This document shows, piece by piece, positions 469 to 34,675 of a DNA stretch of 64,000 nucleotides. The notes under the pieces are model-generated. The model was not told the DNA's origin. It searched no databases and was given only the letters and a program-made list of their open reading frames with translations. The stretch comes from Candidatus Levyibacteriota bacterium (GTDB lineage Bacteria; Patescibacteriota; Microgenomatia; Levybacterales; UBA12049). The stretch's first letter is position 1, and the number at the start of each line of letters is the position of its first letter. The DNA is taken from the NCBI GenBank assembly GCA_016186645.1, contig JACPLF010000006.1, forward strand, positions 46,312 through 110,311. Direction: 5' to 3'. Made by a program: the position numbers and the translations under genes.

Positions 469-1041
469 ATGGATTTTATTACGCTTAGCAATCTTAGTAG
501 CACAAAATTAATCAAGGACACTTTGGTTCATCCTCTCAAAATCAACAGAGACGCATCAGGAATTCTGGTTGAGACGTTGAGAAAAGATTGGAAGAATATT
601 TATGGTCCAGGCCGTGAATTTGCAATGCAATATTACTCTGTAACAGATAGCGGTGTAGCTCGGGATGAAGATGTTTGGCATTATCATCCGACAGTCCAAG
701 AAGACAGATTCTTGGTGGTTCAAGGTGAGATTATTGTGGCCGTAGCAGATAAAAGGGAGGGTTCAAGTACGAATGGATTATTAAATCTTTTTTATATGCA
801 GGCAGATAAAGATCCTTATATATTGTTAGTTCCTAAAAAGACATTGCATACTTTTATGGTAGTTTCCAAAAAACCGGCAATAATACTTAACTATGCAACC
901 AAGCTTTATAATCCGGCCGAAGAGGGAAGAATACCTTTCGAAGAAGCAGGAGTAAAACTTGCGGATGAGGAATTATTTACATGGGAAAAAGCCAGAAGGG
1001 AATTTCCTAAATTCTACTCTTCTATAAATGCGCAACATTAA
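469..1041 (+). CDS. RmlC-like cupin, dTDP-4-dehydrorhamnose 3,5-epimerase family
   Basis: 190 aa. RGFxETLRxD-like start, a WHYH cupin His motif and a C-terminal YNPxxEGxIPF block, with spacing that fits RmlC. Confidence 0.55.
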   Translation: MDFITLSNLSSTKLIKDTLVHPLKINRDASGILVETLRKDWKNIYGPGREFAMQYYSVTDSGVARDEDVWHYHPTVQEDRFLVVQGEIIVAVADKREGSSTNGLLNLFYMQADKDPYILLVPKKTLHTFMVVSKKPAIILNYATKLYNPAEEGRIPFEEAGVKLADEELFTWEKARREFPKFYSSINAQH

Positions 1042-7410: not shown

Positions 7411-9334
7411 ATGATTAAATCTTCTAAATCTACTAAATGGCTTGACAAAATTGGCTCTTTTTTGAAATTTTATTGGGTTGGAGTTTTAATTTCTTTGATA
7501 TTTTTTGTTGTAGGAATTATAACCCTTTCTCATTATGGAAATAACATAGATGAGCCAATGCATTTTGAAAAGGGAAATGCGTATCTCGACTTCTTCTTAA
7601 CCGGCAGAGAAAAATATACGGATGCCGATTTCACAAGTAAGCGTATCAGTGAATGGAAATATAGAGGATTTGATACGGCATTTTTCTTGAAGACCGATTG
7701 TTGCCATCCTTCTCTGAATGATATTCTGGCCGCTGGGACTAATAGAGTTCTTTATGGACAGTTTGGAATAATGGGTGATCTAGAATCGTATCATGTATTC
7801 GAATTATTTATCTCAACGCTTCTTATATTTCTAGTATTTGCAATGATTAGAAGGAGATACGGTATTTTTGCTGGAACGATAGCGTCTTTATCAATAGCCC
7901 TCTATCCTTTATTCTATGGAGAAGCTCGTTTTAATATTAAAGATCCTATTGAAGCTTCATTTTTCGCTTTTACTCTTTATTTCTTTTATTTAGGTGTTGA
8001 AAAAGCGAGAGCAAAATATTTTTTAATATCAAGTATATTTTGCGCCCTTGCTTTCGGAACTAAATTCAACATTATCTTTTTGCCATTCATAATTATTCCA
8101 TATCTCTTAGTACGTTTTGGTTTTAGTTTTAATTTTAAAAAAATACCCAAAAGAATTTATTTAAGTCTATTTATTTATCCGATTATAGTTTTGGGAGTCA
8201 ATTTTATCTTCAGACCTTATTTGTGGCAAGACCCCATTAATCGTTTCTTGAGTGTTGCCCAATATTATAAAGACATTGGGACAGGGACAGATTATCAGTC
8301 TGCATTTCTTAAATTTGGTTGGAATACGTATCCAACTTTTTTCGTTGGAATTTCTACGCCTCTTATTATTCTCGGATTATTTCTTGTCGGGGTGGTAATT
8401 GCTTTATTTAGAGTAAAACGTGAAAAAGATAAATTTTCCTTTCTTATACTTTTGTGGTTTGCAATTACTATTCTCAGAGTATCAATTCCAGGGACTTCAA
8501 TATATGGGGGAGTAAGACAGATTATGGAGTACGTTCCTGCCATGGCGGCAATTTCAGGATTAGGAGCTTTATACCTTAGAAGTCTCTTGTCCAGATATAT
8601 AAATATCAAATTAGCCTCCATAATAATTTTTGCAGCATTTGTTCCTTTGATGGCAACTCTTGTGAGGTTACACCCAAATGAAAATTTATTTATAAATAGT
8701 TTGGTAGGAGGATTGAAGGGGGCAACTGAAAAAAAAATCTAATTTTCCTCCTCAATTTTTACGTAAAGACATTAAATTTGGTGCAGTAATTTCCGGCATG
8801 AAGCGTAACGGAGAGTATATGATGGAAATGTTTTCTGTGGAATATCCCTCTTCCCGCTATAATATAGATTACCTGGAAAATCTCCTAGATCCTGTATATG
8901 TTTATTATGTTGATGGTGTGCCAATCCTGAAAGTTTGGAAGAACGACATCGTTCACACAAAACCAGCTTTCGCTCTCGAAGTGGAGCTTCATGATCTTAC
9001 TATAAGCGGAGGAGCTAAAGAGGGATTCATACTGCTTGAGCTTAAAAATCCAGCTAGCATATCTAGAATTGAAATAGATCATGATCGCAATTCTTGTAAA
9101 GACGAGAGCACTGGAAGAGTTATGTACTTATCCTTAGACGAAGAAGAAATTCTGCTGCCCGATGATCTCTTTAGATCTCAAAGTTTGTATCCATTATCTC
9201 TTCAAACCCCAACACATTTTGTCTATTTTTTAACAGGACAAAAAACAAAGCAAATTACAATAATTCCTGAAAATAAAAATCTTTGTTTGTTGCAATTCAG
9301 AGCAGTAAAAATATTTGGACTGGCAAGTAAGTGA
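7411..9334 (+). pseudogene. Family A GT-C paralog, currently split into 7411..8742 and 8798..9334 by an 89-nt deletion at an A9 tract; one A fewer would restore a single ORF
   Basis: Both fragments align to the 4139..6127 protein. The stop falls immediately after the A9 tract, and the downstream fragment frame reads through upstream (KKSNFPPQFLRKDIKFG...) if the tract were A8. Confidence 0.7.
8729..8737 (+). repeat. Poly(A)9 homopolymer at the frameshift point of the split paralog
   Basis: Read directly: gaaaaaaaaat. Confidence 0.9.
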
Positions 9335-9342
9335 TTTGATGT

Positions 9343-10560
9343 ATGAAAAAAATAAAAATTTTGGTGGTAACGAGCTCTTTCCCGCGCAGTAAAGCCGATT
9401 GGTGGGGACAATTCATTTTAAAAATTTATGAGCATTTACCTAAAGATAGATTTGCAATAACTATTTTAGCTCCACATTCTCCAGGCGCTAAGTTAAAAGA
9501 AAATTTTGAAGATATTAACATTTTCAGATTTCCATATTTTTACCCCTTTTCCCAAGAAATCTTAACAACAGGAAGCGGTATCTTACATAGTAAAGGCAAT
9601 ATTCTTGCAAAAATACAGGTTTCCACTTTTTTATTATCAGAATTTGTTTACGTAATTTTTATTCTCTTAACAAAGAAATTTGATATAGTTCATTCGCATT
9701 GGATTCTGCCTCAGGGTTTTTTTGGAGTTATAGCAAAATATATATTTAAAATACCTTTAATTGTTACTATACATGGAAGCGATATCTTTGCATTAAAAAA
9801 ACTTAACCTTATTAAATCTTTTGTATTAAGAAAATCAACCATCGTTACCGCAAATAGTACTGCAACACAAAGAGAAGCTTACGCAGTTAGTTCTAATTCA
9901 AATCCACTTTTAATACCAGAAGGTGTAGATTTAAACGTATTCAATTCCAAGAAAAGGGACTTACAATGGAGAAAAAAAATGAATAATAATGACCAAATTA
10001 TTATTGCAGTGGGAAGGCTGATAAAGTGGAAGGGTTTTGACTATCTTATAAAGGCAATGCCTAAAATACTTAAAAAGTTTCCTAAAGTAAAACTTGTTAT
10101 TGTAGGTTCAGGTCCTGAAGAAATGAATTTAAAAAAAATTGTAGAATTTTTGGGATTAGATAAAAATGTTGTATTTTTAAAAAATGTATCTCATGACAAA
10201 CTTTCAGTGATGTATGCATCGAGCGATATTTTCGTGTCTCCATCAATAACGAATGAAGCTAGTGGAGAAAAAGAAGCATTGGGGATTGTTATTATAGAAG
10301 CGATTGCCTCAGGAATTCCGGTTGTTGCGAGCAATAGCGGTGGCATTAGAGATACTGTAGATGGCAAATCAACGGGATTTCTTGCAAAAGAAAAAGATCC
10401 TGATGATATAGCTCAAAAGACAACGGATTTACTATCTAATTTGAAAATTAGAAGAGAAATCATCAAAAAAGGCTTAAGACATGTTGAGAAAAGATATTCA
10501 TGGGATATTCTGGCAAAGAAATATAGTGACTTATATGAAAAATGCATGAAGTTGACATAA
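9343..10560 (+). CDS. Glycosyltransferase family 1 (GT4)
   Basis: EALGIVIIEAIASGIPVVASNSGGIRDTV motif. Confidence 0.85.
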   Translation: MKKIKILVVTSSFPRSKADWWGQFILKIYEHLPKDRFAITILAPHSPGAKLKENFEDINIFRFPYFYPFSQEILTTGSGILHSKGNILAKIQVSTFLLSEFVYVIFILLTKKFDIVHSHWILPQGFFGVIAKYIFKIPLIVTIHGSDIFALKKLNLIKSFVLRKSTIVTANSTATQREAYAVSSNSNPLLIPEGVDLNVFNSKKRDLQWRKKMNNNDQIIIAVGRLIKWKGFDYLIKAMPKILKKFPKVKLVIVGSGPEEMNLKKIVEFLGLDKNVVFLKNVSHDKLSVMYASSDIFVSPSITNEASGEKEALGIVIIEAIASGIPVVASNSGGIRDTVDGKSTGFLAKEKDPDDIAQKTTDLLSNLKIRREIIKKGLRHVEKRYSWDILAKKYSDLYEKCMKLT

Positions 10561-10605
10561 AGAAGCAGAATAACTACGATATATGCTGTTATTCAAAAAG
10601 CATAC

Positions 10606-11391
10606 ATGAGAGACAATAAGAAAACACGTGAGCGTATAACAGGAGAAGATAGCGGAAATTCAATTATTTTTAACCGCCATTTGGCAGCTTACAAATACGC
10701 TGCTTCTTATGTGGATAGGAAAAAAAGCGTATTGGATTTAGGCTGCAGTGATGGCTATGGAAGCTTTTTAATTGCAAAGATATCAAAGGAGACTGTTGCG
10801 CTAGATATTGATAAAAAGACAATCGAAGATGCAAGAAAAAAATACAGTATGGCAAACCTTAAGTTTGTTCTCGGGAACGCACTATCTTTAAAATGGAAAA
10901 ATAAATTTGATATTGTAGTGTCTTTTCAGGTTATTGAACATATCGAAGATGTAAATTTGTATCTTCACCAGATTAAAAAAGTTTTGAAAAAAGGAGGAAT
11001 TTTTATTCTTTCTACCCCAAACAGATTGCTCCGATTGAGAAACGGGGAAAAACCCTGGAATAAATTTCATATTCATGAATTCGAAAAGGAGGAATTAACG
11101 TCTTTTCTTAAAAAACATTTCTCAAAAATTGAAGCAATGGGATTGCATTCTTCAGAAGATATTTATGAAGCCGAGAGGAAAAGACTATACATAAGAAGGT
11201 TAATTGCGAAATTTGATTTATTTGATTTTTACTCGCATCTACCTCGTGAATTCACAGATAGGATTGTTGGGTTAATTAAAAAATTGACCTTAAGAAAAAA
11301 AGATAAAAAAACTACAAATCAAAATGATTTTTGGTTCAGCAAGGACAAGGTAGATATTTCCCTAGATTTACTGAGCGTATGCACAAAATAA
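10606..11391 (+). CDS. Class I SAM-dependent methyltransferase
   Basis: VLDLGCSDGYG motif I and a later LKKGGIFILSTPN block. Confidence 0.8.
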   Translation: MRDNKKTRERITGEDSGNSIIFNRHLAAYKYAASYVDRKKSVLDLGCSDGYGSFLIAKISKETVALDIDKKTIEDARKKYSMANLKFVLGNALSLKWKNKFDIVVSFQVIEHIEDVNLYLHQIKKVLKKGGIFILSTPNRLLRLRNGEKPWNKFHIHEFEKEELTSFLKKHFSKIEAMGLHSSEDIYEAERKRLYIRRLIAKFDLFDFYSHLPREFTDRIVGLIKKLTLRKKDKKTTNQNDFWFSKDKVDISLDLLSVCTK

Positions 11392-11415
11392 ATACATATC
11401 AAGGTTTTTAGCTTT

Positions 11416-12597
11416 ATGGTCAAATTAATTAAGTCTACTTTTTATAATGAATATAATACGAAAGAAAAATTGTGTGAATTTATTAAAAATGCTAAGCAGC
11501 TTAGTTTTGGGACAGAGTGCGAGAAGTTTGAACAAAATTTTGCTAAGTGGCAGAAAAGAAAGCATTGTATATTTTTGAATAGCGGAAGTTCCGCCAACTT
11601 AGCTATAGTTCAAGCGCTTCTGAATGAAGGTAGCATCAAAAAAGGGGATAATGTCGGGTTTTCAGCTCTCACCTGGTCCACAAATGTGATGCCAATAATT
11701 CAATTGGGATTGAATGCGATACCCATAGATGTCGAGTTAAACACTTTAAATGTTTCCAGCAGAATGCTTAGAGAAGTTATTGAAAAACATTCTTTGAAGA
11801 TGCTATTTATTACTAATCTTCTTGGATTTTGCGACGACATAGATGAAATAAGAAAAATTTGCGATGAAAAGAAAATAATTTTTATAGAGGATAACTGTGA
11901 ATCGTTAGGTACAGTTTACAAAGGAAAATTATTGGGCAATTATGGGATAGCTTCTACATTTTCCTTTTATGTCGGGCACCACATGTCTACGATTGAGGGC
12001 GGAGCAGTTTGTACTGATGATGATAAGCTTGCAACCATGCTTCGCTTGGTTAGGGCGCATGGGTGGGATCGTAATTTAAGCCAAGAACAGCAATTAAAAA
12101 TTAGAAACAAGTTTAAAGTTAACTCCACATTTTACTCAAGGTATACGTTCTACAATTTGGGTTATAATCTACGGCCAACAGAAATAAATGGACTTATCGG
12201 TAATTTACAAATTAAGTACCTTACAGAAATTATAGAGATAAGAAGCAAAAATTTTTTTGATTTATCGTTGCCTATTTATAAGCAGGAAAATAAGTATTTT
12301 ACGATTAAATATAAACATATCGATTTCCTTTCTAGCTTCGCTATTCCTGTAATATGCAAGAGTCAAAAAATAAGAGACGAATTGGTTGAAAAATGCAAAG
12401 ATAAGATTGAGATCAGGCCAATTGTAGGTGGAGATATGACAAGACAGCCTTTCTTCATGAAGTACATGAAGAAATATGCAGATTCATTTAATGACTCAAA
12501 TGCTAAGTTAGTGCATGATCAGGGGTTATATTTCGGCAACAATCCTGAGCTAACATCTGAAGAAAAGAAAATAATTTTAGACGTATTTACTAAGTAG
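11416..12597 (+). CDS. DegT/DnrJ/EryC1-family enzyme with His replacing the PLP lysine: putative PMP-dependent nucleotide-sugar 3-dehydratase (ColD/E1-like)
   Basis: SFYVGHHMSTIEGG in place of the canonical SF..K..GEGG; 393 aa; no C-terminal Cys cluster. Confidence 0.65.
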   Translation: MVKLIKSTFYNEYNTKEKLCEFIKNAKQLSFGTECEKFEQNFAKWQKRKHCIFLNSGSSANLAIVQALLNEGSIKKGDNVGFSALTWSTNVMPIIQLGLNAIPIDVELNTLNVSSRMLREVIEKHSLKMLFITNLLGFCDDIDEIRKICDEKKIIFIEDNCESLGTVYKGKLLGNYGIASTFSFYVGHHMSTIEGGAVCTDDDKLATMLRLVRAHGWDRNLSQEQQLKIRNKFKVNSTFYSRYTFYNLGYNLRPTEINGLIGNLQIKYLTEIIEIRSKNFFDLSLPIYKQENKYFTIKYKHIDFLSSFAIPVICKSQKIRDELVEKCKDKIEIRPIVGGDMTRQPFFMKYMKKYADSFNDSNAKLVHDQGLYFGNNPELTSEEKKIILDVFTK

Positions 12598-13507
12598 GTC
12601 GGTCTTTTTTCTTTTGCGCAAGGTAATATGTGACCATTTCCGCAATTAGCCCTGTTGATAAAAGCTGCACTCCTAAAAGCATGAAGAATACTCCAGCAAT
12701 CAAAAGGGGAATCTTACCTTGAGTTGTGCCTGTTGTTAATTTGACATAAGTTACGTAAGCATCCATTAAAAAACCGGCAGAAAAAAGTGAAAGTCCTATT
12801 ACGCCGAAAAAATGTGCAGGTTTTGCAGCAAAGTCGCTTATAAAGATCGCAGTCAGAAGATCTAAAATGCCTCTCCAGCTTCTCCCAAAACCAAATTTGG
12901 ATTTCCCATATTTTCTTAACCTATTATTGACTTGAATTTCCGTAACCTTATATTTCTTTTTTGCTGCCAATATAGGGATGAATCTGTGTAGCTCGCCATA
13001 AATACTTAACTCGTCCGCAACTTCTTTTCTCAATATTTTTAGTCCACAATTAAAATCATGTAATTCTACTCCGGATAGAAATGCGGAGCCCTTATTAAAC
13101 AATATGCTTGAAATTTTCTTGGATAATGTATCTGCTCTTTTTTTCCTCCATCCATTAACCAGATCGTATCCTTCTTCTAATTTGGCGATTAGTTTTGGGA
13201 TATCCATAGGATCGTCTTGCAAGTCTGCATCCATCGCGATAATTACCTCTCCCGTTGCTTCTCCAAACCCGGTGGATAGAGCCAATGATTTGCCAAAGTT
13301 TGCTCTAAAAGTAATAAGCTTAATATTGTTGTTGGTTTTTTGAAGCTCAGCAATTATCTTACTTGAATTATCTTCGGATCCATCGTCAATAAAAATAATC
13401 TCATAAGGCTTGTTAAGTTTTTTTAAAGCTTTTGCTAGCTCATTGTGGAGTGTAGGAAGAGACTGAGCTTCGTCTTTTAAAGGGATTACTATGGAATAGG
13501 CAATCAT
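12590..13507 (-). CDS. Polyprenyl-phosphate glycosyltransferase (GT2, GtrB/ArnC/DPM1-like) with C-terminal transmembrane hairpin
   Basis: IVIPLKDE...IIFIDDGSED...DADLQDDP plus two C-terminal hydrophobic helices. Confidence 0.8.
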   Translation of the reverse strand: MIAYSIVIPLKDEAQSLPTLHNELAKALKKLNKPYEIIFIDDGSEDNSSKIIAELQKTNNNIKLITFRANFGKSLALSTGFGEATGEVIIAMDADLQDDPMDIPKLIAKLEEGYDLVNGWRKKRADTLSKKISSILFNKGSAFLSGVELHDFNCGLKILRKEVADELSIYGELHRFIPILAAKKKYKVTEIQVNNRLRKYGKSKFGFGRSWRGILDLLTAIFISDFAAKPAHFFGVIGLSLFSAGFLMDAYVTYVKLTTGTTQGKIPLLIAGVFFMLLGVQLLSTGLIAEMVTYYLAQKKKDRPT

Positions 13508-14133
13508 TGTTTGTTGTAGTATTTTTTATTTTGGAGTTTTTCTATGGTTTGCAAATTTGTCTTTGAAAAATTGACTACAATAATAAACGTTTTTTGGTTC
13601 TGAGCTGGAACTCTTTCTATTAGCGTACCAAGAACCTCCTGATGTTTTCTGGAAGCAGTTTTTAACTTATTAAACAAGTCATCGTTTGGTTTTTCTGACA
13701 TTTTTTTAAGCTCGTATGTTACAAGAGTCATATTGTGTTCTGCTTTTAATGCTGTTTGCTCTGCCAGCGCAACTTTGTTTTTATCTATCAGCATAGCTGT
13801 AGCCAATATGCCCTTATCTGCCTGCAATAGGTAAAATTCAATCCTCTTATACTGATCGCTTATGAGCACTATGCTTATTTTGTCTCTTAGGACTTTCAAT
13901 TTATACAGGGGATTATCAGGCAAAATACCGGGGAAAGCCAGATCGTAGTCTATTTTAGCGATCTCCATTTTAGGGTCAGCTGATTCAGTTTCCATTGAGT
14001 TTTGCTCCTTAGCTTCAGCCGAGATTGCAAAAAACAGAGAAAAAACGACAAAAACCAATATGAATAAATTCAATTTACGCACATTTTGAGTATAGTCTAA
14101 TACGATGAAAGTGTCAACATCTCTATTTGACAA
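13504..14133 (-). CDS. Secreted or membrane-anchored hypothetical protein (DUF5667-like)
   Basis: N-terminal hydrophobic helix, then PGILPDNPLYKLK and coiled-coil-like Ala/Lys/Glu-rich sequence. Confidence 0.4.
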   Translation of the reverse strand: MSNRDVDTFIVLDYTQNVRKLNLFILVFVVFSLFFAISAEAKEQNSMETESADPKMEIAKIDYDLAFPGILPDNPLYKLKVLRDKISIVLISDQYKRIEFYLLQADKGILATAMLIDKNKVALAEQTALKAEHNMTLVTYELKKMSEKPNDDLFNKLKTASRKHQEVLGTLIERVPAQNQKTFIIVVNFSKTNLQTIEKLQNKKYYNKQ

Positions 14134-15109
14134 GGTCTTTTAAATAGTTTTGAGTAAAATATTCAACGCCTTTTACATTTAAGTGTTCACGGTCCCAATA
14201 AAACTCCTGTTTTTGCATTTCTAGTGCGAAATCAAAATACTCTGTTTTGTATTTCTTTTTAAGCTCGGACAGTAACTTTATCACATTATCATGTCCGGGC
14301 ATTTCTCCCATAAGAGTGGGTGGTATTATGAAGGAAATTGCTGCATCATTCTTTTTTGCTAACAATATAATTTGTTCGACATGCTTTGAATACTTTGAGA
14401 AATTTTTATCACTTAACCCCTCATTATATGATATTTCCAGTCTTTGTTTATCTTCAGCTTGGTTAGCTAGCTGTTGTTCTTCCGGAGTCTTCTGAGCCAT
14501 TCGCGCTTCTCTTTTTCCAGCCTCAACCTTAGCAGAGTCCTCACTAGGAATTTCTTTATTGTCAGGTTGTAGATTTTCTACGGGTTTAATTTTCTCAGGG
14601 GATATAGTTTTAGGCATTAGCAGTTCCCTCATAAATTTATCAGAATTGTCTGTCAACTTATCTCTAAAGTAATTAAATACCACTTTTGTACTCACTTTGT
14701 TTTCGATTAGCTTAGAGAGGTATGAGTATTCGATTCCTTCCTGTTGAAGAATATAATTATCCTCATTCCAGCGAGACGAATAAAGCGCCCACGGATCTAA
14801 AAAATAAATAACTTGATTAGTTTTATTGTTTGCCTCAAAAAAACAAGTGAGAAATATTTTTTCCGGAACAACACCAGCAGCTCCTGTTGCCAAATTTTTC
14901 ATTTTTTTCTGTATAATTTTTTCTACTATGTGATCGTAAAATACTTGTGTATGTGATGTTCCCATTAGTAAGAAATCATATTCTCCGTTTCTAGGAGCTG
15001 TACAAGCAGATTCAAGGAAAGACTTGTTGTATAAAAGGTACATAATCACATTGTAGATAACGATATTAACTACCATTAGAATTAAAACTTTTAAAATAAA
15101 TCTTTTCAT
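14123..15109 (-). CDS. DltD/SGNH-like membrane-anchored acyltransferase partner protein (putative)
   Basis: N-terminal TM, GTSH (GDS-like) block, C-terminal DREHLNVKG (DxxH) block; sits directly downstream of the MBOAT gene. Confidence 0.45.
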   Translation of the reverse strand: MKRFILKVLILMVVNIVIYNVIMYLLYNKSFLESACTAPRNGEYDFLLMGTSHTQVFYDHIVEKIIQKKMKNLATGAAGVVPEKIFLTCFFEANNKTNQVIYFLDPWALYSSRWNEDNYILQQEGIEYSYLSKLIENKVSTKVVFNYFRDKLTDNSDKFMRELLMPKTISPEKIKPVENLQPDNKEIPSEDSAKVEAGKREARMAQKTPEEQQLANQAEDKQRLEISYNEGLSDKNFSKYSKHVEQIILLAKKNDAAISFIIPPTLMGEMPGHDNVIKLLSELKKKYKTEYFDFALEMQKQEFYWDREHLNVKGVEYFTQNYLKDLVK

Positions 15110-21681: not shown

Positions 21682-22764
21682 ATGAAATTTATTGCACAAA
21701 TGGAGCCATGGATTGGTAAAGAAGAGAAAGAAGCAGTTGATAGCGTTCTTGCATCAGGATGGATAACAGAAGCCTCTAAAACTCGTGAATTTGAAAGCCG
21801 TATCGCATCATTTGTAAAGAGCAAGTATGCAAGTGTTCTTTCCAATGGTACAGTTACTTTATTTGCCGGCTTAAAGGTTTTAGGAGTAGGACCGGGAGAC
21901 GAAGTAATTGTTCCGGATTTCACAATGGTTGCTAGTCCAAATACAGTTGTGATGGTTGGAGCAAAACCTGTATTTGTTGATATAAAAAAAGAAAATCTAT
22001 GTCTTGATCTTACAGAAGTTGAGAAGAAAATTACTAAAAAGACAAAAGCAATTATGCCGGTTGCTATCAACGGACGAGCTCCGGACATGGATAGCCTTAT
22101 GAAATTGGCTAAAAAGTATAAGCTTTTTGTTCTGGAAGATGCTGCGCAGGCTTTTGGAAGTTATTATAAAGGAAAACACTTGGGAACAATTGGAGACATA
22201 GGAAGTTTTTCTTTTAGTACTCCAAAAGTAATAACAACCGGTCAAGGTGGTGCTTTAGTTACGGACAATAAAGAATTTAGCGATAAAATTATAAGGATTA
22301 AAGATTTTGGAAGAATTGACAGGAATACCCAGAACCATGATGAGATAGGATACAACTTCAAATTTACGGACATTCAGGCGGCACTAGGTCTTGCTCAAAT
22401 GGGTAAATTAGAGTGGAGACTGAAAAGAAAAAAAGAAATGTACAAGCTTTATAAAGACTGTTTGAAGGAAGTATCTCAAGTAAAATTTATTAAAACAGAT
22501 CTAGAGCAAACTTCTCCCTGGTTTATAGATATTATGGTTGAGGATCCAATTAAACTATCTAAATATCTTAAAACTAAAAATATAGGGACAAGAGTTTTTT
22601 ATCCTGCGATTCACACTACAAAACCTTATAAGGGTGCAGAAAAATTTCCCAACTCTTTATGGGCATCAACTCATGGCCTTTGGCTTCCGTCATCAACTTT
22701 TCTTACAGAGTCTGATATAATCTTAATTTGCAGCGCCGTAAAAGAGTTTTATGAAAAAAACTGA
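21682..22764 (+). CDS. DegT/DnrJ/EryC1-family PLP-dependent sugar aminotransferase
   Basis: SFSTPKVITTGQGG with the canonical PLP lysine; 360 aa. Confidence 0.85.
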   Translation: MKFIAQMEPWIGKEEKEAVDSVLASGWITEASKTREFESRIASFVKSKYASVLSNGTVTLFAGLKVLGVGPGDEVIVPDFTMVASPNTVVMVGAKPVFVDIKKENLCLDLTEVEKKITKKTKAIMPVAINGRAPDMDSLMKLAKKYKLFVLEDAAQAFGSYYKGKHLGTIGDIGSFSFSTPKVITTGQGGALVTDNKEFSDKIIRIKDFGRIDRNTQNHDEIGYNFKFTDIQAALGLAQMGKLEWRLKRKKEMYKLYKDCLKEVSQVKFIKTDLEQTSPWFIDIMVEDPIKLSKYLKTKNIGTRVFYPAIHTTKPYKGAEKFPNSLWASTHGLWLPSSTFLTESDIILICSAVKEFYEKN

Positions 22765-23836
22765 GCAAGATATCAAGAAAATATTAAATAACAGAACGGT
22801 TTTAATAACTGGGGCAGATGGATTTGTCGCATCCCACTTAACAGAAAAATTAGTAGAGTATGGTTCAAATGTTCATATATTAATTCGTGCCACTTCTTCA
22901 GGAATGCTTCACAATATTCCTCATCTTAGGGGAAAAATGACTGTTCATTACGGAGACCTAACAGACAAGCAGGCGATAAAGGAAGTTTTGAAAATAGTAA
23001 AGAATGAGGGCGGGGAAAAGCCCATTGTTTTTCATCTTGGGGCGCAGGCGCATGTCGGAGAATCCTGGAGAAGATCATATGAAACATTTAATACAAATGC
23101 TCTGGGTACTTTAAATCTTTTGCAGACGATAGTTGATGTAGATTTAGATTTGTTTAAACTCGATACTGCAGGAACCTCAGAGGAATACGGAAATGTAAAT
23201 CCGGAAGTTAGAGATCAATATAGATTTGACAAAAACGGTGGTTTAATTTTGGATGAGAGATCACCTCTAAATCCGCAAAGTATTTATGCTACTTCAAAAG
23301 TCGCAGCTGATTTTCTAACCAGAAATTTCTATGTAGGGTATGGAGTCCCTACGGTTGTAACAAGAATGTTTAACAATTACGGCCCAAGACAAAATCCAAG
23401 ATTTATAACAGGAACAATTATTACTCAAGCTTTGGACAGGGATATCGTAGAATTAGGTTCTTTGACTCCAAAAAGAGATTTCTGCTTTGTGGAAGATGGG
23501 GCAATGGGACACATAAATGTAGCGCTTTTTGGAAATCCGGGTGAGGTATATGTTTATGGTTATGGAGAGACAATTTCAATTGGTGATTGGTACGATCTTA
23601 TTATAAAAGTTGGCCGTGAAAAGGGATACTGGAAAGATAAGAAACTCATTCATAAAGATAGCGGAAAAAGAGGAAGACTGGGAAAAAGCGAGGTTGAAGA
23701 ATTAAGAGTTGATTATACAAAACTTAATAAACTCACTGGTTGGACTCCGAAATTCTCTTGGAAAGAAGGACTTGAAAAAACCATAAAATGGTACGCTGAA
23801 AATAAAGAAAAATGGATAGGAAGGGTTGATTGGTAA
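22751..23836 (+). CDS. NDP-sugar 4,6-dehydratase, GDP-mannose 4,6-dehydratase-like
   Basis: VLITGADGFVASHL, MTVHYGDLTD (Gmd-like HYGDLTD) and YATSK. Confidence 0.7.
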   Translation: MKKTEQDIKKILNNRTVLITGADGFVASHLTEKLVEYGSNVHILIRATSSGMLHNIPHLRGKMTVHYGDLTDKQAIKEVLKIVKNEGGEKPIVFHLGAQAHVGESWRRSYETFNTNALGTLNLLQTIVDVDLDLFKLDTAGTSEEYGNVNPEVRDQYRFDKNGGLILDERSPLNPQSIYATSKVAADFLTRNFYVGYGVPTVVTRMFNNYGPRQNPRFITGTIITQALDRDIVELGSLTPKRDFCFVEDGAMGHINVALFGNPGEVYVYGYGETISIGDWYDLIIKVGREKGYWKDKKLIHKDSGKRGRLGKSEVEELRVDYTKLNKLTGWTPKFSWKEGLEKTIKWYAENKEKWIGRVDW

Positions 23837-24787
23837 ATGGATAAGGGTTTTTGGAAAGGCAAGAAAATACTCGTAACAGGAGGCCGCGGTTTCGTAGGAA
23901 GTCACGTTGTAAAAAATCTTCTTGAAAAAAGAGGCGTTCCAAAAAGCGCTATAATAACTCCTCAAAGCAAGGATTACGACCTAAAGACTTACGATGGAGC
24001 AAGAAGATCAGTCAAGGGAGTAGATGTTGTGTTGCATTTGGCTGCAGATGTAGGCGGAATTGCATACAGCAGCACTCATCCTGCAACTCAAATGAGGAAC
24101 TGTTTGCTTATTGACGCAAATACGTTTGAAGCGGCAGCAAATGAAAAAGTAGAAAAATTCGTTTGTGTATCTAGCGCAGTTGCATATCCCGTTAACGCAT
24201 CATCACCTCTTAAGGAGGAGGATTTATTTATAGGAGAACCAGCAAAAGGCGGATACGGCTATGGATTTGCCAAAAGAATGTCTGTTGTAATGGCAAGAGC
24301 TTACAAAGAGGAAAAAGGATTAGACGCTTCAGTATTACTGTCTTCCAATGCATACGGTCCGGGAGACAATTTTGATCTGTCTCATGGGCACGTGATTCCT
24401 TCTCTTATCAAGAAATGTTTGACAGAAAAGGAGCTTGTTGTCTGGGGAGATGGAAGTCAGGTGAGGGATTTTTTCTTTGTTGAAGATTTTGCAGAAGGAG
24501 TAGTTTTGGCAGCTGAAAAATTACATACCTCAGATCCAGTAAACATTGGCTCAGGGGATCCAATTGCCATTAGAGATTTAGTTAAAATAATTGTTAAATT
24601 GACCAAATTTAAAGGAAAGGTGATATTTGACTCAACAAAACCTCAGGGGCAAAAAATTAGAAACGTTAGTATAGAAAAAGCCTTAAGGTTGATGGGTTTT
24701 GCCCCGTCCTACACTCTTGAGGGAGGTATTAAAAAGACAATAGAATGGTATCTTAAGTATGGAAAAGAAGGTTCAAAAACAACTTAA
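23837..24787 (+). CDS. GDP-L-fucose synthase-like NDP-4-keto-6-deoxyhexose epimerase/reductase (SDR)
   Basis: LAADVGGI, YGYGFAKR and NAYGPGDNF...HVIPSLI blocks in the order of the fucose synthase (GMER) family. Confidence 0.7.
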   Translation: MDKGFWKGKKILVTGGRGFVGSHVVKNLLEKRGVPKSAIITPQSKDYDLKTYDGARRSVKGVDVVLHLAADVGGIAYSSTHPATQMRNCLLIDANTFEAAANEKVEKFVCVSSAVAYPVNASSPLKEEDLFIGEPAKGGYGYGFAKRMSVVMARAYKEEKGLDASVLLSSNAYGPGDNFDLSHGHVIPSLIKKCLTEKELVVWGDGSQVRDFFFVEDFAEGVVLAAEKLHTSDPVNIGSGDPIAIRDLVKIIVKLTKFKGKVIFDSTKPQGQKIRNVSIEKALRLMGFAPSYTLEGGIKKTIEWYLKYGKEGSKTT

Positions 24788-25943
24788 AGACTTAAATGTT
24801 GCAATAGTCACTCATACAAGAACAACCGGATTAAGCCAATTTTTGAAAGATTGGCTACTTAATAAAACAAAAAAACTTGTTTTTATAGGTCACCCTCTAT
24901 ACCCAAGTACTGAATCTAATTCTTTAATGGAAATTTATGAAAAAGGAGCATTAAAAAAAAATTATAATTCTCCATTCATCTTTAAGTCGGGAATTTTACT
25001 TTACATAAAAGATGCATTTCTCACATTTTATTTTTTTCTCAAAATGGGTAGCAAAATAGACATTGCTGTTGGGGTAAATAATCTTAATACGGCAGCTCTA
25101 TTACTTCTTAAGAAAATGAATTTTATAAAAAAAGTTGTATATCATACGGTTGATTATGCCCCAATTCGTTTTGAAAATAAATTACTTAATAATGTTTATC
25201 ATGCGATTGACAAATGGTGCTGTTATAACGCAGACATACTTTGGAACAGTTCCGGAAGAATGAATGAGGGAAGAATAAAAAACGGAATGGATAAGAATAA
25301 AATTGCCAAAACAATTATTACGCCGGACGGAAGCAATTTTGACCCAGAGAAAAGATTAGGCATTTCAGAAATAGATAGGAAAATGGTTGTTTTTTTGGGA
25401 CATCTTAGGGAAAGATTGGGATTAGAGCTATTGGTAGAATCTTTTAGCGATGTTGTTGCGTTTGTTAAGGATGCAAAGTTATTGATAATAGGCGATGGTC
25501 CATTATTAAACAAATTAAAAAATATGGTCAAAGAATTAAAAATTTCAAAAAATGTCGAGTTTACGGGTTTTATAGAGAGACATTCCGATGTGGATAATAA
25601 ATTAAGAAAAGCGGCAATTGGAATCGCAGTGTTTGAGCCCGATAAAAATTCGTATGAATATTACTCCGATGCAGGAAAACCAAAAGTCTATCTAGCTGCA
25701 GGTTTGCCGGTTGTAATAACTAAGGTGCCTGAAATTGCAGATGAAATAGATGCTAAAAAAGCAGGATTTGCCATCGAATACGACAAAAAAGAATTAGCAA
25801 AAGCAATCGTTACGCTTCTTAAAAATGACAAACTCTACGAAGACTACCGAAAAAATGCTATAGAACTTTCTAAGAAATATATTTGGAATAGTCTTTTCTA
25901 TGAGGCCTTTTCCCAAACTTTAAAACATTTCAAGAAGAATTAA
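24759..25943 (+). CDS. Glycosyltransferase, GT4-like; paralog of 52999..54207
   Basis: C-terminal Rossmann-like domain aligns with the 52999 protein (GLPVVITKVPEIADEI vs GLPVITTHVPPLSREI). Confidence 0.55.
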   Translation: MEKKVQKQLKDLNVAIVTHTRTTGLSQFLKDWLLNKTKKLVFIGHPLYPSTESNSLMEIYEKGALKKNYNSPFIFKSGILLYIKDAFLTFYFFLKMGSKIDIAVGVNNLNTAALLLLKKMNFIKKVVYHTVDYAPIRFENKLLNNVYHAIDKWCCYNADILWNSSGRMNEGRIKNGMDKNKIAKTIITPDGSNFDPEKRLGISEIDRKMVVFLGHLRERLGLELLVESFSDVVAFVKDAKLLIIGDGPLLNKLKNMVKELKISKNVEFTGFIERHSDVDNKLRKAAIGIAVFEPDKNSYEYYSDAGKPKVYLAAGLPVVITKVPEIADEIDAKKAGFAIEYDKKELAKAIVTLLKNDKLYEDYRKNAIELSKKYIWNSLFYEAFSQTLKHFKKN

Positions 25944-27323: not shown

Positions 27324-28991
27324 TTATTTAAAATCTTTGCGCTCTAACTTTTTTGTCTCGGAGTTATAATATAAGTAAATAACATCGTCCTTGTCAAACA
27401 AATTTTGTCCAATCGCTTTATTTAACTCTAGCTTATCGTAATAATAGCCAAAACCTTTGCCATCTTTTTGTCTATATCCTTGTCCTAAGGTGTCGTATAG
27501 AAATCCAACATCTAATGCTTTTGCAAACGTTGCTTCTTTGAAAAAATCAGGATTTAATTCTCTTTTCGTTGTATATTTAACCATTAGAACATGTCCTAGG
27601 CCAGACTGAAAAGGAGTTTTCAGTTCCGGCAGACCATAGTATCCCTCAGAATTTCCAGTTATAAAAAATACTGTTTTTTTTGGCAATACCGGTACCAAAT
27701 TTTCAACTTGTTTCAAAAAATTTTGTCTTTCTTTGGATCTATCTGCCATAAGCTTTAAATCCGAGAAAAGCGTTGATTCATGGATAAAAACATATAGAAA
27801 TAAAACAAAAACCGCAATTATTTTAAATACCCTTTTGTTGGAGGAAAGCAAATTGAAAATTAATACGGCTAAAAAAATAGCGACTCCAATAGATCCTGCA
27901 TAGTAATATCGGGAATCCAAATATGAGAATGAGCTGTTTATTACAACATAAGGGAGGAAGCTTAAAGCAGCTAAAATAATTGATGCTTTCAAAGCTTTTA
28001 AGGAATTGGAAGAAAATTTTAATTTTCTCATAAGCCAAAATATTAAAATTGCAAAAGCAACCAGTAGAAGTAAAATTGTAATTTCCGCATTAGAATTTTG
28101 ACTTGCGATTAAAAACCCTAAAGAATCAGAAGGTAAGTTGGGATTAACTATTCTTGTTGTTATATCGGATAATTTGAATAAATAGAAATTCGGGATAATT
28201 AATTGCACTATGCCCTCAAGCGGGTATTGTATTGAATGCATAGCTATATTCGGGATTAGTGAGGAGCCGGTGTTCACATAATTCGCCCTGTCTCCAGGAA
28301 TAAACAATACGGTTTTTATAAAGAAAGAAAGCATAATTAATCCTAAAATAATAAGTGTTAAATGTTTTTTCAGCAGTATTTTTATACCCGTTCTTTTTAG
28401 AGAGTAGATTGAGAAAAGAACCGGATAAAAAACAAACGCGAATGCCCCAATTTCTTTAAAAAGAAAGGAAACCCAAAGAAGAAAAGTAGACAGTAAAACA
28501 AGCTTAACTTTTCCATTATCGATAAATTTTAGGAAAAATATTAAAGATAAAAGCAGGAAAAAAACCGAAGTCGAGGATCCTGTCATGGTTCCAAACCAGC
28601 TGTAAGCTTCATGTCCGAGCTCATTTATTAAAAAAAGAAAAGAAGCTAGGGTAGAGATTAATAGATTTTTTGTTAACTTTTTTGTCAATAAAAATATAAG
28701 AAATGCATTGGCCACATGAAAAGTGAATCCAAAAGCACCGTAAGGCAGAGTATTTAGCTCAAATAAATTGAAAAGGCCAAAAGTTATAATTCTTGCTCCA
28801 ATTCTATCGCCCAAAAGAAGTTCTACCAAAGTTTTGTCCACGGTTATATATTTGGTTCCGTAGGATAAGATAATTCCAAATCCATGCCATTCATCCTGTT
28901 GGAAATACTGGAGAAATAGAAGAAAATTAGCCAGCAGAATAATATGTATTAAAATTCCAACAGCGACTATTTTTTTAAAAACTTCACTCAT
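27324..28991 (-). CDS. Polytopic membrane protein, putative GT-C-type glycosyltransferase
   Basis: 555 aa with more than 10 hydrophobic segments; sits in a minus-strand operon with RmlD-like, GT2 and methyltransferase genes. Confidence 0.5.
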   Translation of the reverse strand: MSEVFKKIVAVGILIHIILLANFLLFLQYFQQDEWHGFGIILSYGTKYITVDKTLVELLLGDRIGARIITFGLFNLFELNTLPYGAFGFTFHVANAFLIFLLTKKLTKNLLISTLASFLFLINELGHEAYSWFGTMTGSSTSVFFLLLSLIFFLKFIDNGKVKLVLLSTFLLWVSFLFKEIGAFAFVFYPVLFSIYSLKRTGIKILLKKHLTLIILGLIMLSFFIKTVLFIPGDRANYVNTGSSLIPNIAMHSIQYPLEGIVQLIIPNFYLFKLSDITTRIVNPNLPSDSLGFLIASQNSNAEITILLLLVAFAILIFWLMRKLKFSSNSLKALKASIILAALSFLPYVVINSSFSYLDSRYYYAGSIGVAIFLAVLIFNLLSSNKRVFKIIAVFVLFLYVFIHESTLFSDLKLMADRSKERQNFLKQVENLVPVLPKKTVFFITGNSEGYYGLPELKTPFQSGLGHVLMVKYTTKRELNPDFFKEATFAKALDVGFLYDTLGQGYRQKDGKGFGYYYDKLELNKAIGQNLFDKDDVIYLYYNSETKKLERKDFK

Positions 28992-33391: not shown

Positions 33392-34675
33392 ATGAAAGTT
33401 GGTATTATTGGAGCTGGGTTTACTGGTCTTTCAGCAGGATACTACTTAACAAAAGAAGGCCATGATGTAACCATTTTTGATAGGGATGGCGTTCCGGGTG
33501 GTCTGGCTATAGGTTTTCAGGAAAAAAATTGGGAATGGAGTTTGGAAAAGCATTATCATCATTGGTTTACAAATGATAGATCTATTTTAAGTTTGGCCAG
33601 AGAGTTAAATTACAAAGTTTTTATAACACGGCCAAAAACTTCAGTGTATGTAGATGGAAAATTTTTCCAATTAGATTCCCCATTGAATGTACTTCAGTTT
33701 CCAAGACTTCCCATTTTCGATCGGATAAGAATGGCATTTGTTTTAGGGCTGATGAGATACAATCCCTTTTGGAAACCTCTGGAAAAAATTCGGGCAGTTG
33801 ATTTTCTTCCAAAGGTAATGGGAAAAAGAGCATATGAGAAGTTATGGGAACCATTGTTTATCAATAAATTTGGAGACCGAAGGCATGATATATCTTTGGC
33901 ATGGTTTTGGGCAAGGGTTCGTAAGAGAACGCCTAGTCTTGCATATCCGCAGGGGGGATTTTTAAAATTTGCAAATCATTTGGCCAACAGGATTAAAAAA
34001 CAAAAAGGGAAAATATTTTTAAATACAGAAGTCATCAGTGTGGAAAGTGATAAAGAGACTAAGATAAATATTAAGAGAAACTTAGAAATAAAATCAATCA
34101 AATTTGACAAGATTCTTGTTACACTTCCTACTTTCTTTTTTTTAAAACTGGCTAAAAATTTGCCAGGTGATTACGTAAAGAGATTAAGTAAATTGGAGGG
34201 GTTTGGGGCAATAAATCTTGTGATGAGATTAGATAGGAAATTTCTTAATGACAATACTTATTGGCTGAATATTTGCGATAAAAATTCACCTGTAATGGCA
34301 GTTGTGGAGCATACCAATTTTATGAATAGTAAATATTATGATCGGGAACACGTAGTTTATGTAGCAAATTATTTCCTGCCCAATGACCCGCATTTTAAAA
34401 TGACGGATAACGAGCTATTAAAAGAGTGCGATCCATATCTTAAGAAAATTAATAGTAAATACAGGGAAAACCTTATTAGCTATAGTGTTTTTAGAACTCC
34501 TTTCGCTCAGCCTCTTATTCCCATGAATTATTCAAAAATGATCCCGCCAATAGAAACTCCTTTGAAAAATGTGTATCTTTCAAATATCCAACAGGTCTAT
34601 CCTTGGGATAGGGGAACAAATTATTCAGTTGAGAATGGAAGAGAGGTTGCTAAGATGATGATGAATTTGGTATGA
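33392..34675 (+). CDS. FAD/NAD(P)-binding oxidoreductase (amine oxidase / UDP-galactopyranose mutase superfamily)
   Basis: N-terminal VGIIGAGFTGLSAGYYL...DVTIFDRDGVPGG dinucleotide-binding motif. Confidence 0.55.
   Translation: MKVGIIGAGFTGLSAGYYLTKEGHDVTIFDRDGVPGGLAIGFQEKNWEWSLEKHYHHWFTNDRSILSLARELNYKVFITRPKTSVYVDGKFFQLDSPLNVLQFPRLPIFDRIRMAFVLGLMRYNPFWKPLEKIRAVDFLPKVMGKRAYEKLWEPLFINKFGDRRHDISLAWFWARVRKRTPSLAYPQGGFLKFANHLANRIKKQKGKIFLNTEVISVESDKETKINIKRNLEIKSIKFDKILVTLPTFFFLKLAKNLPGDYVKRLSKLEGFGAINLVMRLDRKFLNDNTYWLNICDKNSPVMAVVEHTNFMNSKYYDREHVVYVANYFLPNDPHFKMTDNELLKECDPYLKKINSKYRENLISYSVFRTPFAQPLIPMNYSKMIPPIETPLKNVYLSNIQQVYPWDRGTNYSVENGREVAKMMMNLV

Follow-up and report, generated by a model that had tools for sequence, protein, structure and literature searches.

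A predicted ColD-type nucleotide-sugar 3-dehydratase and an E1-lineage relative in a Levybacteria (Patescibacteria) bacterium

The 3,6-dideoxyhexoses are components of the lipopolysaccharide O-antigens and capsules of Gram-negative pathogens (PMC8987622, PMC10440746). The 64-kb window, i.e. the whole stretch of DNA analysed here, comes from a Levybacteria bacterium and encodes a DegT-family protein (P1) which the preliminary description proposed to be a sugar 3-dehydratase, with a histidine in place of the PLP-binding lysine. This raises the questions of whether P1 belongs to that class, to which of its lineages, and on which nucleotide sugar it might act.

11416..12597, + strand: P1, predicted ColD-type PMP-dependent NDP-4-keto-6-deoxyhexose 3-dehydratase (Pfam, PDB and neighbor-joining tree)
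11962..12003, + strand: active-site motif SFYVGHHMSTIEGG, residues 183-196 of P1; the His188 codon is 11977..11979
21682..22764: canonical Lys-containing DegT aminotransferase, motif SFSTPKVIT

The P1 ORF starts with ATG and encodes 393 residues. Its full-length match to Pfam DegT_DnrJ_EryC1 (PF01041; 6.3e-60, residues 19-387) and to solved members, among 57 matched PDB sequences, places it in the DegT/DnrJ/EryC1/StrS (fold-type I) superfamily. The gene appears native, as GC content stays uniform near 33% (31-37%), and recent horizontal acquisition was rejected on these grounds. Nor is the gene rare: NCBI already holds an identical protein from a Candidatus Levybacteria MAG, and there are thousands of homologues, of which the nearest 120 clusters share 71-85% identity with P1 and, wherever a source is named, come from Patescibacteria MAGs. 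In sequence space, the view that such enzymes are mainly enteric is thus not borne out. Several P1 relatives have already been automatically named 3-dehydrase (JGI).

A MAFFT alignment of P1, Escherichia coli ColD, Yersinia E1 and the canonical aminotransferase of the window places P1 His188, the first histidine of the motif, in one column with ColD His188, E1 His220 and the PLP-lysine, confirming the proposed substitution; the same column is fixed when P1 is aligned by HMMER with two mutant chains of ColD, H188N (3b8x) and H188K (2r0t). The substitution is not due to chance, His188 being kept in 157/157 members of the P1 clade. A lysine elsewhere that could form the Schiff base, which would have spoken against the proposal, was sought, and no lysine at least 80% conserved was found within residues 172-348 across the 157 members, the sole invariant lysine of the clade being K6. 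Among positions contacting PMP and phosphate, in numbering common with ColD, S56-G57-S58, D159, E162, S183, R219 and R334 are invariant in all 157. The SGS triplet, D159 and S183 are identical across P1, ColD and E1, and we take them to be, respectively, the phosphate loop, the partner of the pyridine N1 and a cofactor-binding residue; Arg219 and Arg331 of ColD presumably bind the diphosphate. W87, E162 and R253 are common to P1 and ColD and occur in neither E1 nor P2, the second histidine enzyme of the window (see below).

With respect to lineage, the best PDB match of P1 is E. coli ColD (2gms; 9e-64, full length, ~35% identity), whereas E1 is more distant (5e-39, 27-29% identity). ColD/WbdK (E. 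coli O55, Yersinia; PDB 2gms, 2gmu, 3b8x, 2r0t, 3gr9) is a GDP-4-keto-6-deoxy-D-mannose 3-dehydratase, with which P1 shares the histidine at the same number and W87, D159, E162, S183, R219, R253 and R331/334. E1 (RfbH/DdhC/AscC of Yersinia and Salmonella; PDB 3bcx, 3bb8) is a CDP-6-deoxy-L-threo-D-glycero-4-hexulose 3-dehydrase, with which P1 has in common the fold, the Lys-to-His substitution and, by homology, probably the first half-reaction; however, E1 carries a [2Fe-2S] cluster on four cysteines and depends on the E3 reductase. The E1 loop carrying three of the ligands, Cys251/253/261, is deleted in both P1 and ColD, and only the equivalent of Cys193 (C161 in P1) is left, as it is in ColD; the deletion favours a ColD-like enzyme, in line with what had been anticipated from the absent cysteine motif. 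A neighbor-joining tree, distance-based and lacking support values, has the order (E1,(P2,(ColD,(GMD-adjacent L037/L038,(CPR clade including P1))))), with P1 clustering with the proteins of loci L003 and L004. The NCBIfam RfbH model (NF011936, an E1 equivalog) has a cutoff of 423 bits, which neither P1 (213 bits) nor P2 (359 bits) reaches, so the name RfbH/E1 fits neither.

At the level of sequence, then, the fold, the histidine substitution, the absence of Fe-S ligands, the ColD lineage and the conservation of P1 are well established, and P1 is very probably a ColD-type PMP-dependent nucleotide-sugar 3-dehydratase. It is a genuine, if unremarkable, ColD-family enzyme of an already known class, although it differs from ColD not only in overall identity and in seven extra conserved cysteines, but also in its host, which is of a Patescibacteria lineage and not a Gram-negative pathogen, and in Gly187, which is conserved in 157/157 clade members where ColD has Ser187, such that the P1 active site is not identical to that of ColD. 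Two further described systems are comparable. The Campylobacter jejuni HS:5/HS:11 C3-dehydratases are ColD-type enzymes using PLP and L-glutamate on GDP-6-deoxy-4-keto-heptose, and in their pathway a C5 epimerase and then a C4 reductase act next (PMC10440746). Compared by description, the window is similar in encoding an RmlC-like epimerase and SDR reductases, but the C. jejuni enzymes have GDP-heptoses as substrates and share 62-67% identity with ColD. SpnQ, the dTDP-4-keto-2,6-dideoxyglucose 3-dehydrase of spinosyn biosynthesis, is, like P1, a histidine-containing DegT-family 3-dehydrase; also by description, it carries a [2Fe-2S] cluster and uses ferredoxin/flavodoxin reductases, whereas P1 is without such a motif.

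The preliminary description had correctly located a further histidine enzyme in the window, which it regarded as a second copy:

44216..45427, + strand: P2, E1-lineage His enzyme without [2Fe-2S] cysteines (PDB E1 3bcx, 1e-73)

The called start of P2 is 44216, with the longest ORF beginning at TTG 44207. P2 has its histidine in the E1 His220 column, as do 120/120 of its relatives, all 120 of which are missing the equivalents of E1 Cys251/253/261. P1 and P2 are only about 27% identical and belong to the ColD and E1 lineages, respectively; they are therefore not copies of one another. Both signatures are indeed present in the one locus, and other CPR loci (L011, L021) likewise have a ColD-like and an E1-like gene no more than 10 kb apart. 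In 3/3 E1-like loci, a module of RfbF-like and CDP-glucose-dehydratase-like (SSDKAYG) genes adjoins the E1-like enzyme. P2 is hence a separate, E1-like, Fe-S-free and CDP-associated enzyme, rather than a P1 duplicate.

The immediate surroundings of P1 are as follows:

9343..10560, + strand: GT4 glycosyltransferase (Pfam Glycos_transf_1, 1e-46)
10606..11391, + strand: class I SAM methyltransferase, 24 bp upstream of P1 (Pfam Methyltransf_31/11)
12590..13507, - strand: ArnC/PgfS-like polyprenyl-phosphate sugar transferase, GT2 (NCBIfam ArnC 180 bits, PgfS 158 bits, both below cutoff)

The methyltransferase is probably co-transcribed with P1, their arrangement recurring on independent Logan contigs, and the GT4, methyltransferase and P1 genes likely form one transcription unit with the GT4 gene first. 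No terminator-like site was found in 9000..14500, and a promoter scan gave promoter-like matches no more often than expected from shuffled sequence. The ArnC-like GT2 gene is convergent with P1 and shares 8 bp with the 3' end of the latter, an arrangement kept in the Levybacteria locus L005 (64% identity). Unlike ColD, P1 is thus unlinked in the window from genes for a 4,6-dehydratase or a reductase, adjoining instead the methyltransferase, GT4 and ArnC-like GT2 genes. Candidate pathway partners lie further away:

469..1041, + strand: RmlC-like cupin epimerase, which may act at C5 or C3,5 on a 4-keto-deoxy sugar (Pfam dTDP_sugar_isom, 1e-12)
22751..23836, + strand: GMD/LegB-like NDP-hexose 4,6-dehydratase, candidate supplier of the 4-keto-6-deoxy substrate (Pfam GDP_Man_Dehyd, 1e-60)
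23837..24787, + strand: Fcl/ColC-like 3,5-epimerase/4-reductase, candidate last step after P1 (NCBIfam, PDB)
54261..55313, + strand: CDP-tyvelose 2-epimerase-like (TyvE-like) SDR (PDB 9rl0 4e-44, 1orr 1e-34)
55279..56382, + strand: second TyvE-like paralogue, in tandem with and overlapping the first (PDB 9rl0 3e-45, 1orr 9e-39)

The dehydratase scores below cutoff on both NCBIfam LegB (183 bits) and gmd (TIGR01472, 106 bits), and its GTSEEYG motif resembles STSELYG/SSSEMFG of GMD seeds. Its Fcl-like neighbour reaches 215 bits on GDP-L-fucose synthase (cutoff 500), matches GDP-fucose synthase in the PDB (1e-41), and is 41% identical to the Fcl-like gene directly after the P1 orthologue in L001 and L003. 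The RmlC-like gene is 56-67% identical to RmlC-like genes of L011, L020, L027, L046 and L048. The first TyvE-like gene is orthologous (74-77%) to the gene directly downstream of the ColD-like gene in L003, L004 and L020 (by blastp, 77% to L003 and 74% to L004). Neither a nucleotidyltransferase nor a bona fide GMD was found within the 64-kb window, and the ~4 kb to its left, as covered by Logan contigs, contain only GT4, PTPS_related and MptA_B-family genes.

The P1 substrate would be supplied by a 4,6-dehydratase. If P1 follows the ColD mechanism reviewed in PMC8987622, PMP bound non-covalently would condense as a Schiff base with this NDP-4-keto-6-deoxyhexose at its C4 keto group; His188 would take the C4' proton and the hydroxyl at C3 would leave. 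P1 has no Fe-S cluster and lacks a partner of the E3 reductase type, for which reason the ene-amine intermediate would be hydrolysed, giving NDP-4-keto-3,6-dideoxyhexose, ammonia and PLP, with PMP being regenerated by transamination with L-glutamate; we infer the chemistry, glutamate dependence, substrate and product of P1 by this analogy. The Fcl/ColC-like epimerase-reductase, possibly with the RmlC-like or TyvE-like epimerases, might then complete a 3,6-dideoxyhexose, to be added by GT4/GT2 enzymes of what would be a very large surface-glycan locus or, alternatively, to enter via the ArnC-like polyprenyl-phosphate transferase and GT-C (PMT_2) enzymes.

Two other readings of P1 itself have to be set against 3-dehydration with hydrolysis. 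P1 might be a 4-aminotransferase with non-covalent PLP/PMP, making a 4-amino-4,6-dideoxy sugar with no removal of the 3-hydroxyl; such behaviour has a precedent in SpnQ, which transaminates with PLP and glutamate when its reductase is absent, but ColD and E1 showed no transferase activity under similar conditions (PMC8987622). Glycine at position 187, where ColD has serine, would leave room for it. However, the locus already has the canonical Lys-containing aminotransferase, and P1 orthologues pair with Fcl-like reductases, which require a 4-keto product and so count against this reading; we consider it very unlikely. Slimmer still is the chance that P1 is a reductase-fed enzyme of the E1/SpnQ type, with the conserved cysteines of its clade forming an unusual metal or Fe-S site. 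The cysteines are certainly striking, with 8/9 in P1 being at least 95% conserved in the clade, versus 38% of all positions (p = 0.002), with C161 matching the E1 ligand Cys193, and with the P2 clade carrying only 3 cysteines. The seven that are extra relative to ColD are, however, scattered over all three regions of the fold, at positions that are buried and hydrophobic in ColD and E1, which fits free thiols in a cytoplasmic enzyme of an anaerobe; moreover, the loop for three of the four E1 ligands is deleted, and the window has no reductase or ferredoxin gene for such electron transfer, no E3-like gene (Fer2/FAD_binding_6) being present among its 58 annotated ORFs.

With P1 read as a ColD-type 3-dehydratase, its nucleotide carrier was considered through a census of gene context around P1 orthologues (37 loci, neighbours within 10 kb). 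GDP, as the name ColD implies, is a plausible carrier and, for a colitose-type pathway, the one that we modestly prefer; CDP is a possible carrier of lower probability, and any other carrier is improbable. The preference for GDP follows from the homology to ColD and from the Fcl/ColC-like gene being the most frequent direct neighbour of the orthologues (within 10 kb in 15/37 loci and directly after the orthologue in about 10), as well as from the presence of a true GMD (523-608 bits, cutoff 415) directly upstream of P1 relatives, basal in the clade, in L032, L035, L037 and L038, and of the GMD-motif dehydratase and Fcl-like gene 10-11 kb downstream of P1 in the window itself.

It is nonetheless worth weighing, although unlikely, that the CPR crown clade of P1 applies ColD-type chemistry to a CDP-sugar. 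The substrate would then be, with a similarly low likelihood, CDP-4-keto-6-deoxy-glucose or its manno epimer made via the TyvE-like 2-epimerase, and the outcome, no likelier, a path, independent of a reductase, to CDP-3,6-dideoxyhexoses resembling paratose, tyvelose or ascarylose. P1 groups in the tree with L003 and L004, the closest relatives with an informative context, which have a TyvE-like partner, RfbF nearby and no GMD. The conserved TyvE-like gene of the window has counterparts that abut or overlap the ColD-like or Fcl-like gene in L003, L004, L020 and L029. Across the 37 loci, GMD never co-occurs with TyvE-like, RfbF-like or SDR309 genes; the last of these, directly upstream of the ColD-like gene in 5 loci, was rejected as an alternative 4,6-dehydratase, having STTHVYG in place of the dehydratase motif STDEVYG. 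An RfbF-like glucose-1-phosphate cytidylyltransferase, the only strong nucleotidyltransferase type near ColD-like genes, lies within 10 kb in 7 loci. Such proximity was, however, downgraded as evidence of CDP use by P1, since the adjacency of the RfbF module to the E1-like gene in 3/3 E1-like loci means that its nearness to ColD-like genes may be incidental. Similarly, Salmonella TyvE is reported to epimerise GDP-glucose as well (PMC12188384), on which basis a TyvE-like partner is no proof of CDP. All solved relatives of the Fcl-like protein, the most frequent direct partner, bind GDP-sugars, and the GMD-adjacent clade members are 64-65% identical to P1. More doubtful again is the full proposal that the crown clade has shifted reductase-free ColD-type chemistry to a CDP/TyvE-coupled pathway, yielding tyvelose-, paratose- or ascarylose-like CDP-3,6-dideoxyhexoses without E1/E3, and with its eight conserved cysteines possibly functional. 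If true, then, together with the Fe-S-free E1-like P2, CPR 3,6-dideoxyhexose surface glycans would be built entirely without the iron-sulfur E1/E3 system.

Given that P1 is predictable from ColD, the value of these results lies mainly in pathway annotation and in a lead for CPR glycobiology, rather than in new enzymology. A literature search found no colitose, tyvelose or ascarylose in the 15 top-ranked papers mentioning Patescibacteria. The P1 clade is very large and strongly conserved (mean pairwise identity ~71%), which suggests that 3,6-dideoxyhexoses are common on the surfaces of these ultrasmall episymbiotic bacteria. On the gene content described here, the Levybacteria bacterium probably decorates its own surface with a 3,6-dideoxy sugar, and the cell-surface chemistry of ultrasmall episymbionts, which is almost unstudied, probably matters for attachment to their hosts.

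Sequence comparisons support the predicted identity of P1, a His-containing DegT-family protein, as a ColD-type sugar 3-dehydratase, and every feature of the ColD subtype that can be tested in this way is found in it.

11416..12597, forward strand: P1, open reading frame from ATG to stop, 393 residues

An AAGG lies ~11 nt 5' of the ATG, and Pfam assigns residues 19-387 to DegT_DnrJ_EryC1 (6e-60). The preliminary description held that His replaces the PLP-binding lysine. This is borne out by an alignment of P1, P2 (the second His-containing DegT protein), the canonical DegT aminotransferase at 21682..22764, E. coli ColD and Yersinia E1, the last two rebuilt from printed PDB alignments. The aminotransferase Lys (SFSTPKVIT) shares a column with the first His of P1 (SFYVGHHMSTIEGG, residues 183-196), that of P2, ColD His188 and E1 His220, and it is at this column, that of P1 His188, that the ColD mutant PDB chains H188N and H188K depart from wild type; the substitution is thus real. 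His188 is kept in all 157 compared members of the clade of P1 relatives (mean pairwise identity 0.71) and is not sporadic. An alternative Schiff-base lysine, named beforehand as grounds against the proposal, was looked for and none is conserved near the site: across the 157 members no Lys reaches 80% conservation within residues 172-348, and K6 is the sole invariant Lys. Invariant in the clade, with numbering shared with ColD, are S56-G57-S58, D159, E162, S183, R219 and R334, while W87, E162 and R253 are common to P1 and ColD and occur in neither E1 nor P2.

Nucleotide-sugar 3-dehydratases are marked by an aminotransferase fold with a Lys-to-His change; in E1 and SpnQ a [2Fe-2S] site with four Cys is added and a reductase is required, whereas ColD has no cluster, its ene-amine intermediate being hydrolysed and PMP regenerated from L-glutamate (PMC8987622). 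In a PDB search the best solved relatives of P1 were four ColD/WbdK entries (9e-64 to 2e-62, over residues 18-377; ~35% identity to ColD), compared with 5e-39 for E1 and 1e-27 or weaker for ordinary sugar aminotransferases. The E1 loop WGRDCYCAPGCDNTCKKRF carries three of the four cluster ligands; P1 lacks it, and a gap of ~12 residues common to P1 and ColD falls exactly there. The only ligand left in P1 is C161, equivalent to E1 Cys193, which ColD also has. The earlier view that the E1 cysteine motif is absent, favouring a ColD-like enzyme, therefore stands. Neighbour-joining gave (E1,(P2,(ColD,((L037,L038),(CPR clade including P1))))), L037 and L038 being loci of Caldisericia and Prolixibacteraceae, respectively. 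P1 scores 213 bits against NCBIfam RfbH (cutoff 423) and so should not be named E1/RfbH.

Eight of the nine P1 cysteines (C35, C51, C139, C149, C161, C199, C314 and C327) are at least 95% conserved in the 157 clade members, a level that 38% of positions overall reach (hypergeometric p = 0.002). Seven of these, scattered through the fold, take the place of hydrophobic residues of ColD/E1, with C161 alone common to both. Most simply, they are probably free thiols buried in the enzyme of an anaerobe; a metal site built from them is a possible but unlikely alternative.

For the reaction order in P1, we infer the most likely chemistry from homology, the observations being sequence features alone. 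A 4,6-dehydratase would generate an NDP-4-keto-6-deoxyhexose, with the C4 of which PMP, held non-covalently in P1, would form a ketimine; His188 would then take the C4' proton and the 3-OH would depart. Since neither an Fe-S cluster nor a reductase is available, hydrolysis of the intermediate would release ammonia and leave PLP and the 3,6-dideoxy-4-keto sugar, L-glutamate would restore PMP, and an Fcl-like epimerase/reductase (ColC role), perhaps with RmlC-like or TyvE-like (CDP-tyvelose 2-epimerase-like) epimerases, would finish the 3,6-dideoxyhexose. The same chemistry has been shown with PLP and L-glutamate for C. jejuni ColD-type enzymes (PMC10440746).

Annotation of all 58 substantial ORFs reveals that the whole 64 kb is a glycan-biosynthesis region, with many GT2, GT4 and GT-C (PMT_2, AftD-like) genes, about ten SAM methyltransferases, an MBOAT protein, a flippase and sugar-nucleotide enzymes; none of the 58 ORFs of the 64-kb window encodes a nucleotidyltransferase, a bona fide GDP-mannose-type 4,6-dehydratase (GMD) or an E3-like ferredoxin-reductase. 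The methyltransferase gene 5' of P1 stops 24 bp before it, no terminator-like site was found in 9000..14500, and P1, a GT4 and the methyltransferase appear to form one unit.

12590..13507, reverse strand: ArnC/PgfS-like polyprenyl-phosphate transferase, converging on P1 (180 and 158 bits)
21682..25943, forward strand: operon of four overlapping ORFs, 10-11 kb 3' of P1, encoding a LegC/PseC-like aminotransferase of the canonical type, with its Lys; a 4,6-dehydratase bearing the GMD-type motif GTSEEYG (183 bits to LegB, 106 to gmd); an Fcl-like epimerase/reductase (215 bits to GDP-fucose synthase; PDB 1e-41); and a GT4

The operon, whose dehydratase has an unusually long insert ahead of YxxxK, is a GDP-sugar-like module and could feed P1 as well; plausible suppliers and consumers are thus present in the window, at a distance rather than adjacent. 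The convergence of P1 and the ArnC-like gene is kept in another Levybacteria genome, L005 (81% and 64% identity). Each His-DegT gene converges on, and slightly overlaps, an ArnC/PgfS-like transferase (12590..13507 and 45424..46356, both reverse), and the window encodes eight or more membrane transferases of the GT-C type (PMT_2 or AftD-like), which together suggest lipid-phosphate-sugar donors used outside the membrane.

Several other ORFs of the window were recorded, including four of 300-550 residues among those with no Pfam match (14123..15109, 27324..28991, 34685..35653 and 60116..61777).

33392..34675, forward strand: FAD-dependent amine-oxidase-fold protein among GT-C genes, passing the cutoff of the NCBIfam PRK07233 'hypothetical protein' equivalog (413 bits, cutoff 252)
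40759..41508, forward strand: 249-residue nucleotide-sugar dehydrogenase-like ORF between two methyltransferase genes, matching N-terminal and central domains only, with no C-terminal domain; it may be truncated or degenerate
50126..53002, forward strand: 958 residues, F5/8 type C (discoidin) carbohydrate-binding domain
56363..59764, forward strand: 1,133 residues, AftD-like GT-C domain

Neighbourhoods of P1 orthologues were compared at 37 loci, of which 34 belong to genomes representing their species and three were reached by looking up the exact protein. The commonest neighbour is Fcl-like, within 10 kb in 15 of the 37 and directly 3' of the orthologue in ~10. A true GMD (TIGR01472 523-608 bits, cutoff 415) lies directly upstream of the ColD-like gene in four loci, the proteins of which are 53% (L037), 50% (L038) and 64-65% (L032 and L035) identical to P1; GMD-seed homologues (48-51% identity) lie 4-9 kb off in L010, L018 and L024, that of L018, the one scanned of the three, scoring 385 bits, just under the cutoff. 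In a different set of loci there is a gene for a TyvE-like SDR, which ranks second in conservation within the module; it abuts or overlaps that for the ColD-like or Fcl-like protein in L003, L004, L020 and L029 and lies 3.3 kb downstream in L016.

54261..55313, forward strand: TyvE-like SDR, 77% identical to the L003 copy and 74% to the L004 copy

Among solved structures it comes closest to the CDP-tyvelose 2-epimerases 9rl0 (4e-44) and 1orr (1e-34); 54261..56382 (forward) holds two overlapping tandem paralogues of this type (9rl0, 4e-44 and 3e-45; ~30% mutual identity). Loci with the TyvE-like SDR also have another SDR, SDR309, directly upstream of the ColD-like gene; the idea that it is an alternative dehydratase was dropped, as it has STTHVYG where the STDEVYG acid/base dyad is expected, and a role as reductase or epimerase is more likely. 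An RfbF-like glucose-1-phosphate cytidylyltransferase lies within 10 kb in seven loci (TIGR02623, 260 bits in L003). GMD occurs together with a TyvE-like, SDR309 or RfbF-like gene in none of the 37 loci, and GMD-adjacent sequences branch basally in the tree, where P1 clusters with L005, L003, L004 and L001. Ten of the loci (L012, L013, L016, L022, L023, L026, L027, L030, L032 and L036) come from TPA assemblies titled 'uncultured Gammaproteobacteria'; their ColD-like proteins nest within the Patescibacteria clade, several (e.g. L012, L016, L022 and L023) have the same flippase-containing cassette, and the labels look doubtful.

44216..45427, forward strand: P2, 403 residues from the called start 44216; longest ORF from TTG 44207

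The preliminary description noted the His signature twice in one locus, calling this unusual. The second His-DegT protein is indeed present, but it is no duplicate of P1: the two are ~27% identical, the best solved relative of P2 is E1 (1e-73), and P2 branches outside ColD plus P1. The pairing is uncommon yet not unique, as L011 and L021 also have a P1-type and a P2-type gene no more than 10 kb apart. P2 keeps the E1 loop, but without its cysteines; of 120 relatives at 63-87% identity, every one retains the His and every one lacks Cys251, Cys253 and Cys261. P2 is thus an E1-lineage enzyme free of Fe-S, arguably a more unusual find than P1, and probably acts in a CDP pathway. Within a few kb of the P2-type gene, all three loci examined have an RfbF-like gene (68-71% identity), which is adjacent in L048 and at a distance of 2-2.5 kb in L046 and L047. 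Next to it in L047 and L048 is a dehydratase gene whose product shares 59-60% identity with the RfbF-adjacent dehydratase of L003, which has SSDKAYG, the Asp-Lys signature of CDP-glucose 4,6-dehydratases. These genes belong to the same GT4-flippase-RmlC-like-GT2-GT4 core cassette. Adjoining P2 and its PgfS-like GT2, at 46381..48481 (reverse), are an SDR and a split transketolase-like pair (164 and 209 residues; NF004559 41 and 86 bits, far under cutoff); in L031 similar transketolase and SDR genes come after RfbF and the CDP-type dehydratase, and a YerE-like TPP enzyme is encoded close to the E1-like gene of L047. Such genes may point to a yersiniose-like dideoxy sugar, branched-chain and made by a ThDP-dependent route.

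Evidence on the nucleotide carrier of P1 is mixed, GDP and CDP each having support. We lean slightly towards GDP, given the homology of P1 to ColD, an Fcl-like partner for which every solved relative is a GDP-sugar enzyme, and GMD adjacency inside the same clade at 64-65% identity. CDP, which we would propose only tentatively, would account for the TyvE-like partner, the RfbF genes nearby and the lack of GMD in P1's subclade; however, the RfbF module seems to go with the P2-type (E1-like) enzyme, not the ColD-like one, and the TyvE-like partner is no proof of CDP, since Salmonella TyvE is reported to be repurposable for converting GDP-glucose to GDP-mannose (PMC12188384). It is possible that ColD chemistry has shifted to a CDP/TyvE-coupled route, which, if true, would be the most interesting reading.

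P1 is a predictable enzyme, already in public databases and partly already named: an identical NCBI protein is entered as 'aminotransferase class V-fold PLP-dependent enzyme [Candidatus Levybacteria bacterium]', and JGI labels several relatives 'CDP-6-deoxy-D-xylo-4-hexulose-3-dehydrase' or 'E1'. At least 7,729 homologues have E <= 1e-20, out of just 8,000 candidates for which a score was computed; each of the best 120 clusters shares 71-85% identity with P1, and the few of these with organism names are Patescibacteria MAGs. GC is uniform across the window (~33%), so P1 looks native. P1 would imply that 3,6-dideoxyhexose surface glycans occur in CPR bacteria; colitose, tyvelose and ascarylose are not mentioned in the 15 top-ranked Patescibacteria papers of the literature searched, within which such glycans thus appear unexplored.
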